Assembly: GCA_016840165.1 (NCBI GenBank)
Contig: JAEOSU010000076.1
Location: forward strand, 32,001 to 96,000
DNA from: Promethearchaeota archaeon
Lineage (GTDB): Archaea; Asgardarchaeota; Lokiarchaeia; Sigyniarchaeales; SOKP01
Length of the DNA stretch: 64,000 nt
Direction of reading: 5' to 3'
Under the pieces are notes generated by a model. It was given only the letters and a program-made list of their open reading frames with translations. It searched no databases and was not told the DNA's origin. Position numbers and translations under genes: made by a program. Shown piece after piece: positions 16,542 through 18,428 of this stretch (position 1 is the first letter of the stretch; the number at the start of each line of letters is the position of its first letter).

Positions 16542-17300
16542 TTACGGAACATAATTTTCATTAATAATTTTTCCATCTTCAAAACTTATGATTCTATTGG
16601 CAAGTTCAATTAAAAATTCGTCATGAGTAGCAATAATAATAGTTTTATCTTGTTCTTTCATATTTTTGAATAAATCTCGTATGAAAATGCTGGTCTCCTT
16701 ATCTAAATTAGCCGTTGGTTCATCTGCTAAAATTAAGGGAGGATCATTTGCTAACGCTCGAGCAATTGCAACTCTTTGTTGTTCCCCGGCAGAAAGTTGA
16801 AAAGGAAGATGTTCTCGACGGGATCCGAGTCCAATTTCTTTTAAAAGAGAAACTGCTTTTTCCCTTTGAGTTTTAAGACCTAAACCAGTTAAACTCATAG
16901 GGAACATGATGTTCTCTTCAGCGGTTAAGGTGCTAATAAGGTTGTAATTTTGAAAGATAAAACCTGAATTGATCAATCTAAAGGTTGATAGACTCTCTTC
17001 GTCCATATCTGTAATTTTCACTCCACTTGAGATAATAGTACCAGAATTTGGACTATCTAATGCACCTAAAAGGTTTAATAATGTGGTCTTGCCCGCGCCT
17101 GATGGTCCTTTTATTACAACAAAATCGTTGAGCATAAATTCTAAGGAGACATTATCTACTGCTCGGACAACATACTCTCCTATTTCATAATCTTTCGTAA
17201 CATTTTGTGCTACAATTATCATATTTTTATCATATATGATTTCGGATGTTTCTTTTAGGGCTAGATCATCTATCTCTCTTTTTGACATTTTACAATTCAC
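16542..17300 (-). CDS. ABC transporter ATP-binding protein (LolD/MacB-like)
   Basis: Walker A GPSGAGKTT, signature LSAGEQQR, Walker B LILADEPT, ATHD. Confidence 0.95.
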   Translation of the reverse strand: MNCKMSKREIDDLALKETSEIIYDKNMIIVAQNVTKDYEIGEYVVRAVDNVSLEFMLNDFVVIKGPSGAGKTTLLNLLGALDSPNSGTIISSGVKITDMDEESLSTFRLINSGFIFQNYNLISTLTAEENIMFPMSLTGLGLKTQREKAVSLLKEIGLGSRREHLPFQLSAGEQQRVAIARALANDPPLILADEPTANLDKETSIFIRDLFKNMKEQDKTIIIATHDEFLIELANRIISFEDGKIINENYVP

Positions 17301-17400
17301 ATATTATTCATAGCATGATTCTTTTCTAAATAATAATAATTCCTTTAAATTGTTAATTATACATTTTCAAATAAACCAGAATATCATTAATAAAAAATTT

Positions 17401-17419
17401 GGGAAAAAAAGTTTATATA
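17401..17419 (+). promoter_or_regulatory. Putative archaeal BRE/TATA promoter for the structured RNA candidate
   Basis: Purine run GGGAAAAAAAG followed by TTTATATA (17412-17419), 23 nt before the 5' arm of the long stem at 17442. Confidence 0.5.
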
Positions 17420-17441
17420 CAACCTTGTCATATATGTGATC

Positions 17442-17586
17442 AGAGGGAAGCGTGAAAATAGCACGATATTTTTCGTGTAAAAATATAATATCCCCTAATT
17501 TCCTAATTAAAAATGGTAAAAATACCTAAATTTTATCCCAAAATCTTAAACCTGCACTTAGGTTTTTGATTTTCTCGCTTCCTTCT
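17442..17586 (+). ncRNA. Candidate structured non-coding RNA (~145 nt), unassigned
   Basis: 17442-17459 AGAGGGAAGCGTGAAAAT pairs with 17569-17586 ATTTTCTCGCTTCCTTCT (18 positions, one G-U, one U-U). Three internal hairpins; T-rich tract follows. Confidence 0.5.
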
Positions 17587-17792
17587 ACTCTTATTTTTGA
17601 ACAAATATAAATAATTCAATTCTATAACTATTTCTATCCATTTAATTCTTGAATTTAGATAAATTATACTCATTTCTTTACCAAAAATGTCAAATTTTCA
17701 ATTAATTCTATAAAAAAAATTTAAACAACTTCAAGATTTATAATATCTAAAGTATAATTTTAAGTAATATATTTAAAATGGGGTAAATTTTA

Positions 17793-18428
17793 GTGGATTT
17801 TGAAAAATTAACAGAACTAATTATTGAATTAGAAGTTGATGATATCGCAGATGCCGTTAAAGAGGCTTTAGAACAAGATGGAAAGGATCCATTTGAGATC
17901 TTAAATGCATTGACTAAGGGAATGGATGAGGTTGGGAAGCGTTACGAAGAGAAGGAGTATTATCTCACAGAGCTCGTATTAGCCGGGGAGACTATGAAAG
18001 AAGCATTTAATGTTTTACAACCCGCTTTAGCAGCTGCTGACACATCACAAGAGAAGGTTAAGATTATTATGGGTACGGTTAAAGGTGACAATCATGATAT
18101 TGGAAAAAATATCCTCGCATCCTTACTTTTGAGTTCAGGATTTGAACTATATGACCTTGGAATGGACGTAGATGAAAATACGATAGTTGAAAAGGTGAAA
18201 GAAACTGGGGCAAAAATTATCGCGCTTAGCTCTCTTTTAACTATGACAGTAGAGCAAATTAAGGTGGTAGATGAGGCGTTGAAATCAGCAGGTCTAAGAG
18301 ACAAAGTTAAATTAATTGTGGGTGGAGCTCCCCTAAATATGGAATTGGCAAAGAAGCTAGGAGCTGATGACTTTGCAGAAGATGCTGTGGATGGAGTAAA
18401 GCATATTAAAAAATTAGCCGGTATTTAA
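17793..18428 (+). CDS. Methyltransferase corrinoid protein (MtbC/MttC-like)
   Basis: Helical cap (LTKGMDEVG.RYE..EYY), GDNHDIGKN (DxHxxG), LSSLLT, VGGAP. Confidence 0.93.
   Translation: MDFEKLTELIIELEVDDIADAVKEALEQDGKDPFEILNALTKGMDEVGKRYEEKEYYLTELVLAGETMKEAFNVLQPALAAADTSQEKVKIIMGTVKGDNHDIGKNILASLLLSSGFELYDLGMDVDENTIVEKVKETGAKIIALSSLLTMTVEQIKVVDEALKSAGLRDKVKLIVGGAPLNMELAKKLGADDFAEDAVDGVKHIKKLAGI

Follow-up and report, generated by a model that had tools for sequence, protein, structure and literature searches.

A conserved small RNA candidate of Lokiarchaeia with complementarity to transporter gene start regions in relatives

Locus organization

The window, that is, the whole 64,000-nt stretch of Lokiarchaeial DNA analysed here, contains a compact structured element in the gap between a divergent ABC ATPase gene and a corrinoid protein gene. 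The features of the gap and its two neighbours, in window coordinates, are as follows.

16542–17300 (−): LolD/MacB-type ABC ATPase gene, divergent neighbour (Pfam ABC_tran; NCBIfam LolD/MacB/FtsE-like)
17405–17419 (+): BRE/TATA of the RNA gene, AAAAAAAGTTTATATA, with the TATA box TTTATATA at 17412–17419 (sequence and conservation)
17442–17459 (+): 5′ arm of the terminal helix P1; pairs with 17569–17586 and covaries
17461–17478 (+): inserted, clade-specific hairpin GCACGA...UCGUGU (arms 17461–17466/17473–17478, one pair being G–U)
17487–17519 (+): nearly invariant C/U-rich core, AAUAUCCCCUAAUUUCCUAAUUAAAAAUGGUAA, with the putative anti-RBS seed at 17488–17506 (alignment of relatives)
17515–17526 (+): small hairpin GGUA/UACC (arms 17515–17518/17523–17526)
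17526–17545 (+): second conserved single-stranded motif, CUAAAUUUUAUCCCAAAAUC (alignment of relatives)
17548–17565 (+): conserved 3′ hairpin AAACCU/AGGUUU (arms 17548–17553/17560–17565); covaries
17569–17586 (+): 3′ arm of P1; pairs with 17442–17459 and covaries
17594–17598 (+): oligo-T tract (T5), probable archaeal terminator; a T run follows P1 in most homologs
17733–17747 (+): BRE/TATA of the corrinoid gene itself, AAGATTTATAATATC, ~50 nt upstream of its GTG at 17793
17793–18428 (+): corrinoid (B12-binding) protein gene, downstream neighbour (Pfam B12-binding and B12-binding_2; NCBIfam methyltransferase cognate corrinoid protein)

The corrinoid gene is followed by a TusA-like ORF and then by IscS-like and IscU-like genes. 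On the other side, the ABC operon and the candidate small RNA (sRNA) have back-to-back promoters within ~140 nt (window 17300–17410), and the ABC-side promoter box (TTAGTTATTTAAAA, + strand) is conserved across the genus.

Evidence for a non-coding RNA gene

The interval ~17442–17598 on the + strand is almost certainly an independently transcribed non-coding sRNA gene of ~155 nt; this level of confidence is approximate, applies to the existence of a real non-coding RNA gene and is separate from the figure given below for its mechanism. A preliminary description had proposed a stand-alone small RNA as one of its readings, and that reading is supported by a conserved BRE/TATA of its own, oligo-T after the 3′ arm, a single copy per genome and covarying helices. 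The TATA box and T-tract on which the proposal drew were confirmed, the former ending 22 nt before 17442, and archaeal promoter geometry predicts a transcription start near that position. All homologs examined keep the promoter, AA(A/G)GTTTA(T/A)ATA, at a distance of 21–23 nt upstream of the 5′ arm, and a run of T5–T9 occurs within ~12 nt after P1 in most homologs, the run being interrupted in a few. In relatives the RNA measures 110–180 nt.

Other classes of gene were considered and rejected. The sole internal ORF (25 aa, 17452–17529) runs through the clade-specific insert and is not conserved, which argues against a small protein gene, and a tRNA/tmRNA scan returned none. A box C/D sRNA was suggested by nothing beyond a weak match to snR87, which scored 17.6 bits (E = 3.1) where the gathering score is 37, and no C (RUGAUGA) or D (CUGA) boxes flank P1; a K-turn or box C/D reading of UGAUGAGG was likewise set aside, the motif being found only in the inserts of a few lineages. 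The RNA also contains a telomerase-template-like CCCUAA and an Sm-site-like AAAUUUUAU; both are treated as resemblances without further support.

Secondary structure and covariation

The terminal helix P1, in which 17442–17459 (AGAGGGAAGCGTGAAAAT) pairs with 17569–17586 (ATTTTCTCGCTTCCTTCT), comprises 16 Watson–Crick pairs, one G–U pair and one U–U mismatch; it agrees with the helix given in the preliminary description, and the three hairpins reported inside it are also present. The minimum free energy of the + strand is −41.7 kcal/mol against −20.9 ± 3.3 kcal/mol for dinucleotide shuffles (z = −6.3), a fold better than chance, compared with z = −3.7 for the − strand. The RNA was assigned to the + strand because of its G–U pairs and the orientation of promoter and terminator.

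Both the terminal helix and the 3′ hairpin covary strongly among relatives. In 58 distinct homologs, whose alignment was fitted to the covariance model and whose genomes, being related, are not independent samples, standard pairs fill 91% of the cells, compared with 69% when the 3′ letters are shuffled and 50–63% when the partner is slid by 1–3 columns. The covariation score is 0.489, against 0.186 for shuffled 3′ letters and at most 0.156 for slid partners, and 21 of the 22 pairs change on both sides. Helices 1–3, which make up P1, are 89–97% paired, with both-side changes in 15 of their 16 pairs; in the 3′ hairpin (helix 5) both-side changes affect all five pairs, with 86% of cells paired. 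To allow for the fitting of this alignment to the structure, eight diverse homologs were also folded singly, and all eight adopted the same terminal helix (z from −3.0 to −5.1). A MAFFT alignment of 19 sequences analysed with RNAalifold recovered only seven pairs, because single-base bulges shift the register, and was replaced by the covariance-model alignment.

Conservation divides the three internal hairpins. The third is retained together with the terminal helix across relatives, whereas the first hairpin and the TACC arm of the second proved to be inserts confined to the clade of the window's genome. The 3′ hairpin is itself absent in single genomes of three genera (G086 of g21, G116 of g27 and G081 of g23), in which the RNA is essentially one long helix closing a ~70-nt conserved loop. 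A switch had also been suggested, in which AATC (17542–17545) would pair with GATT (17568–17571) in competition with P1; the two segments are present, but the switch is unsupported because other clades do not keep their pairing, which would in any case displace only 2–3 A–U pairs.

Distribution and synteny

The RNA family is single-copy and occurs in just one family of Lokiarchaeia, which NCBI labels Promethearchaeota. With ten sequences as its basis, a covariance model matched 80 of the 151 genomes of the order, all of them in family f1 (genera g1, g18, g21, g22, g23 and g27), with no match in the 19 genomes of three other families and never more than one match per genome. Within the window's own genus, g1, 27 of 42 genomes were matched under strict filters; several of the members missed by the filters carry large inserts, and missed members were recovered by blastn or with the filters off. 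Searches with blastn gave a best match in all 36 sampled g1 genomes (E < 1e-3 in all but two). The element occupies the orthologous position between the ABC ATPase and the corrinoid gene in the 20 g1 loci that were fetched. The divergent ABC ATPase adjoins the RNA in every one of the 20 g1 loci; in other genera it does so at 20 of 21 loci, which makes this the most conserved linkage of the locus.

A search of 185,579 species genomes for the exact 19-mer of the core (ATATCCCCTAATTTCCTAA) gave 61 stretches, and its carriers are nearly all metagenome-assembled genomes (MAGs) labelled Promethearchaeota, Promethearchaeia or other Asgard names. One carrier, DATKTW010000107.1, is labelled as a Candidatus Nanopelagicaceae bacterium; this contig is probably misbinned in a bacterial MAG, because it matches the sequence of a Lokiarchaeial genome (G011) over the ~250-nt RNA stretch that was compared. 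In another, CAZGXJ010000008.1, labelled as a Nitrososphaeria archaeon, the 19-mer (at ~3087) follows a tandem duplication of TTCGTATATATATCCCCT (two copies) and lacks the P1 arms.

The 18-nt imperfect inverted repeat at the ends of the element would also suit a mobile element of the MITE type, an alternative raised in the preliminary description, or some other genomic repeat with ends of this kind. The genome-wide count refutes it: the element is not a MITE because it is single-copy, with one full match in its own 3.6-Mb genome, and no genome holds more than one model match. It always lies at the same syntenic locus, orthologous in relatives, and its flanks, GATC and ACTC, are not a target-site duplication. 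Its arms, moreover, covary through G–U intermediates, indicating selection at the RNA level. We therefore give the mobile-element explanation practically no credence.

Relationship to the corrinoid gene

The position of the RNA upstream of a B12-binding protein gene, found in g1, g18 and parts of g21 and g23, invites a second explanation, namely a cis-acting leader of the corrinoid gene: either a diverged cobalamin or other riboswitch, or an upstream anti-Shine–Dalgarno element reached by read-through of the T-tract. The preliminary description had offered the former as one option, a diverged B12-responsive leader, on the basis of loose resemblances to cobalamin riboswitch motifs and of the B12-binding product of the next gene. 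A search of the whole window against Rfam gave no family at the gathering score. With permissive filters over 17250–17850, no cobalamin, AdoCbl or other riboswitch model matched even at E ≤ 10, the only matches being the weak ones to snR87 and Ysr35, and no GCCAC of a B12-box core (GCCACUG-like) occurs within 17442–17598. The loosely similar motifs are thus without support.

Genomic context points in the same direction. For a cobalamin riboswitch one would look for a 5′-UTR co-transcribed with its gene, and the sequence instead has oligo-T directly after P1 and a second, separate BRE/TATA between the T-tract and the corrinoid start, kept in every clade. The RNA is also retained in g22 and g27, where no corrinoid gene adjoins it: in g22 it is followed directly by the TusA-like gene, and in g27 neither the TusA-like nor the corrinoid gene lies nearby.

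The second motif (UAAAUUUUAUCCCA) can pair with the corrinoid ribosome-binding site (RBS; UGGGGUAAAUUUUA) at −17.8 kcal/mol, the best value among eight neighbouring start regions and a point in favour of a leader. This pairing was nevertheless rejected: it ranks 614th of 43,676 GGG windows, within about the top 1.4–4% of the background, and other clades do not maintain it (empirical fraction 0.01–0.94). A leader function in either form is very unlikely, and a tempting but wrong annotation, that of an archaeal cobalamin riboswitch, is removed from the locus.

Conserved core and lineage-specific inserts

The ~33-nt core (17487–17519) forms invariant columns in the alignment and is conserved across six genera, with flanks that cannot be aligned among relatives. 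Its 19-nt C/U-rich segment is predicted to be mostly unpaired, with a mean unpaired probability of 0.69 that rises to 0.88 in CCCC, whereas the remainder of the RNA averages 0.45. The second motif (17526–17545) is conserved in g1, g21, g22 and g27 and is degenerate in g18.

Lineages differ in their hairpin inserts, which occupy four fixed sites: one follows the 5′ arm, one separates CCCCUAA from AAUUUCC, one precedes AAUGGUAA and one follows GGUAA(C). The insert at 17461–17478 is found only in the window's genome (G000) and two others (G034 and G007), one of which, G034, has its G–U pair changed to A–U; other clades lack the insert. The same three genomes share the TACC that forms the 3′ half of the GGUA/UACC hairpin, the 5′ half of which belongs to the invariant GGUAA, and other clades carry different inserts or none after GGUAA(C). 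Several lineages have a core interrupted by a hairpin insert that contributes GGGG, GAGG or UUAGGG, able to pair with CCCC(UAA) in cis. The invariance of ~33 nt, which exceeds what a seed needs, suggests together with these cis-pairing inserts an extra constraint, for example a protein, a ligand or tertiary structure.

Such a constraint would be explained if the molecule were a protein- or ligand-binding structured RNA (a component of an RNP, a sponge or a gated riboregulator) whose invariant junction is the binding pocket. Conservation of ~33 nt across six genera is more than base-pairing seeds usually need, and the tolerance of hairpin inserts at four fixed sites is that of structured RNAs with a conserved core. 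Against this stand the core itself, predicted to be mostly single-stranded and without a covarying helix in the RNAalifold analysis of 19 sequences, and the gene neighbourhood, in which no partner protein gene is consistently linked except the ABC exporter. On balance we regard a primary role of this kind as unlikely. One version of it, the gated riboregulator, in which the ~33-nt junction would be a pocket for a metabolite or a dedicated protein controlling whether the anti-Shine–Dalgarno strand is free, is less probable still; it would account for both the more-than-seed invariance and the inserts pairing with CCCC(UAA) in cis and, if true, would constitute a trans-acting, riboswitch-like sRNA specific to Asgard archaea.

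Complementary sites upstream of MFS transporter genes in relatives

In three genomes of the 19-mer scan, a second exact copy was found on the opposite strand of another contig, ending 3 nt before an ATG. The product of that reading frame begins ME(E/Q)..(T/S)F(K/R)SY(L/M)(F/L)FWSGQL and is an MFS_1/MFS_3 transporter. In the sister genus g18 and in some g1 genomes, the core is perfectly antisense, over at least 19 nt and at most 24 nt, to a segment within positions −1 to −27 of MFS genes. Complementarity reaches 24 nt in G078 (AATTAGGAAATTAGGGGATATTAT-ATG), and a g1 example is G026 (AAAGGAAATTAGGGGATATAGG-ATG).

A family-wide pattern search allowing up to two mismatches revealed many extra sites, often two or three per contig and ~1.3 kb apart, compared with 0–2 matches per genome, and none in most, for the reversed pattern. 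Among 30 such extra sites that were fetched, 23 precede an MFS gene, tandem paralogs included, at 0–6 nt from its start codon. The sites often precede two or three tandem paralogs whose proteins are only ~40–50% identical, and the transporters identified as targets in relatives are of the MFS_3 'secretion effector' type. In the window's genus, G026 and G033 have the full site, G001 and G023 have a 13-mer, and most other MFS orthologs lack the site.

Several loci merit separate mention. In g18, arrays of two or three tandem MFS_1/MFS_3 paralogs (for example G099:C24:38400–42800, locus L148; G087:C357, locus L149; and loci L150–L155) carry nearly the same 19–24-nt 5′ UTR, UUAGGAAAUUAGGGGAUAU, directly before each start codon. 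At one locus of this series (L153, G102:C27) an antisense site lies 3 nt upstream of a non-MFS ORF of 373 aa starting MRLINPIYEKLAKIVVEY, a gene that may be an additional target. In G033 (C1, locus L177) the site occurs as two partial copies, AAAGGAAATTAGGGAAAAAT and ATAGGAGATTAGGGGATAAAAT, within the 5′ UTR of an MFS gene at 973, and the core of that genome's own sRNA is split by a hairpin insert.

The site contains a Shine–Dalgarno-like AGGGG 7 nt before the AUG, and the 16S rRNA of a congener ends in GGAUCACCUCCU; the site would therefore double as a Shine–Dalgarno element. Judged from this AGGGG and the rRNA 3′ end, the sRNA would be a far better partner for the site than the rRNA tail and would out-compete it.

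These observations bear on the alternative of a binding RNA from both sides. Without base pairing it is difficult to account for a complement of at least 19 nt that recurs at the start codons of paralogs. The RNA nonetheless persists in the three genomes that gave no member of this MFS family when searched at E ≤ 1e-20 (G092 of g22, G081 of g23 and G129 of g21), as well as in the window's genome, which lacks a site, and under the binding-RNA explanation the MFS complementarity would be one lineage-specific output only. Given that these three genomes keep the RNA, its universal function cannot lie in the MFS link; that link supports a mode of action rather than a function conserved throughout the family.

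Target search in the window's own genome

The two MFS homologs of the window's genome (C86:9026 and C86:16068) both lack the site. A genome-wide search for contiguous complements of at least 11 nt gave 29 merged matches, estimated to be close to chance expectation, and the longest of those near starts lie inside ORFs (C103 and C51) or are only 11 nt long (C2). Scanning all GGGG sites of the genome for duplex energy gave a best value of −25.3 kcal/mol, equal to the shuffled-flank controls, and the genome-wide duplex scans returned nothing above shuffled-core controls and no strong target. Scans for a second paralogous element with the core motif gave only chance matches, one of which (window 58073) falls inside a 1008-aa ORF.

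A scan for a promoter, an inverted repeat and a T-run in combination had a sole other match, at C5:14580–14724 (−; locus L209), outside the window. This second candidate sRNA has the same layout: some 20 nt after a TATA box comes a terminal inverted repeat, perfect over 12 nt (UGAUUCCUGUCA...UGACAGGAAUCA), and then T9, and the repeat encloses the C-rich stretches GGUCCCCCUCUACC, CGCCCCUUUUUUU and CCUCCACCCCGAUAGG.

The start regions of the neighbouring ABC, FtsX, TusA-like, IscS-like and IscU genes show complementarity to the RNA at background level. This result weighs on a further idea, in which the RNA would act as a regulator in concert with the divergent MacB/LolD-type ABC exporter operon, perhaps induced together with it from the back-to-back promoters and shifting export from MFS to ABC transporters. 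Both the ABC ATPase and an FtsX permease adjoin the RNA divergently, with the linkage frequencies given above, and the targets in relatives are, as noted, transporters of a secretion type. Synteny is, however, the whole of its support, since pairing with the ABC and FtsX start regions reaches only −7 to −10 kcal/mol, around the background median. We consider the proposal quite improbable; it concerns physiology and is compatible with RBS masking rather than a true alternative to it.

Proposed mode of action

The most likely role of the RNA, to which we assign a probability of roughly 0.6, is that of a trans-acting antisense sRNA that masks the RBS of target mRNAs. According to this model, a long terminal helix, usually accompanied by one 3′ hairpin, would close a large loop that exposes a C/U-rich stretch, AUAUCCCCUAAUUUCCUAAUU, which hardly varies and for the most part is predicted to be unpaired. 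This stretch would pair with the Shine–Dalgarno and start region of target mRNAs, and the pairing would block ribosome binding and possibly also alter mRNA stability. Expression of the RNA, duplex formation in vivo and repression of translation are what we infer from sequence comparison only. Of the attributes of an archaeal RBS-masking sRNA, a promoter and terminator of its own and a non-coding nature are apparent at the sequence level, and complementarity between the core, predicted to be accessible, and initiation regions is seen in relatives (the 23 of 30 MFS sites) and not in the window's own genome.

Asgard archaea are the closest prokaryotic relatives of eukaryotes, and to our knowledge almost nothing is known of RNA-based regulation in them. 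The family offers a testable sRNA–target pair, in which an invariant 19–24-nt anti-RBS core faces the 5′ UTRs of MFS transporter genes. In addition, it supplies a scaffold that covaries and, for the whole family, a marker gene that current genome annotation misses.

Comparison with known systems

Cobalamin riboswitches (RF00174, RF01482 and RF01689) share with this RNA a position upstream of a B12-binding gene and a multi-stem fold with a terminal helix. The Lokiarchaeial RNA differs from them in matching none of their models, in having its own terminator and a downstream gene with its own promoter, and in the loss of the corrinoid linkage in two genera.

RsaE/RoxS of Firmicutes resembles it in carrying repeated C-rich motifs (UCCCC, UUUCC and AUCCC in the RNA described here) that are unpaired and able to pair with G-rich Shine–Dalgarno sequences, and in being a conserved single-copy family. 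Unlike the Lokiarchaeial RNA, RsaE/RoxS is bacterial and ends in a Rho-independent terminator hairpin, and its Rfam model gave no match at E ≤ 10 in the interval. We therefore treat the resemblance as an analogy limited to the C-rich unpaired motifs and not as homology.

The closest parallels are sRNA41 and sRNA154 of Methanosarcina mazei, which mask ribosome-binding sites (PMC5867862). The RNA described here has no sequence or Rfam relationship to them, its complement of at least 19 nt exceeds their short anti-RBS loops, and it is built as a long clamp helix around one large open loop; it is also known from sequence alone, with no target found in the window's own genome. Our searches found no Rfam family for, or published account of, a conserved Lokiarchaeial sRNA, and the RNA family itself is previously undescribed. 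The likenesses to sRNA41 and sRNA154 lie in an independently transcribed archaeal sRNA of ~100–150 nt with unpaired loops complementary to the RBS, here as a prediction, and in the targeting of several related genes with one seed. Because these two M. mazei sRNAs act by masking ribosome-binding sites, the mode of action proposed for the Lokiarchaeial RNA has an archaeal precedent and is of a functional kind already known in archaea.
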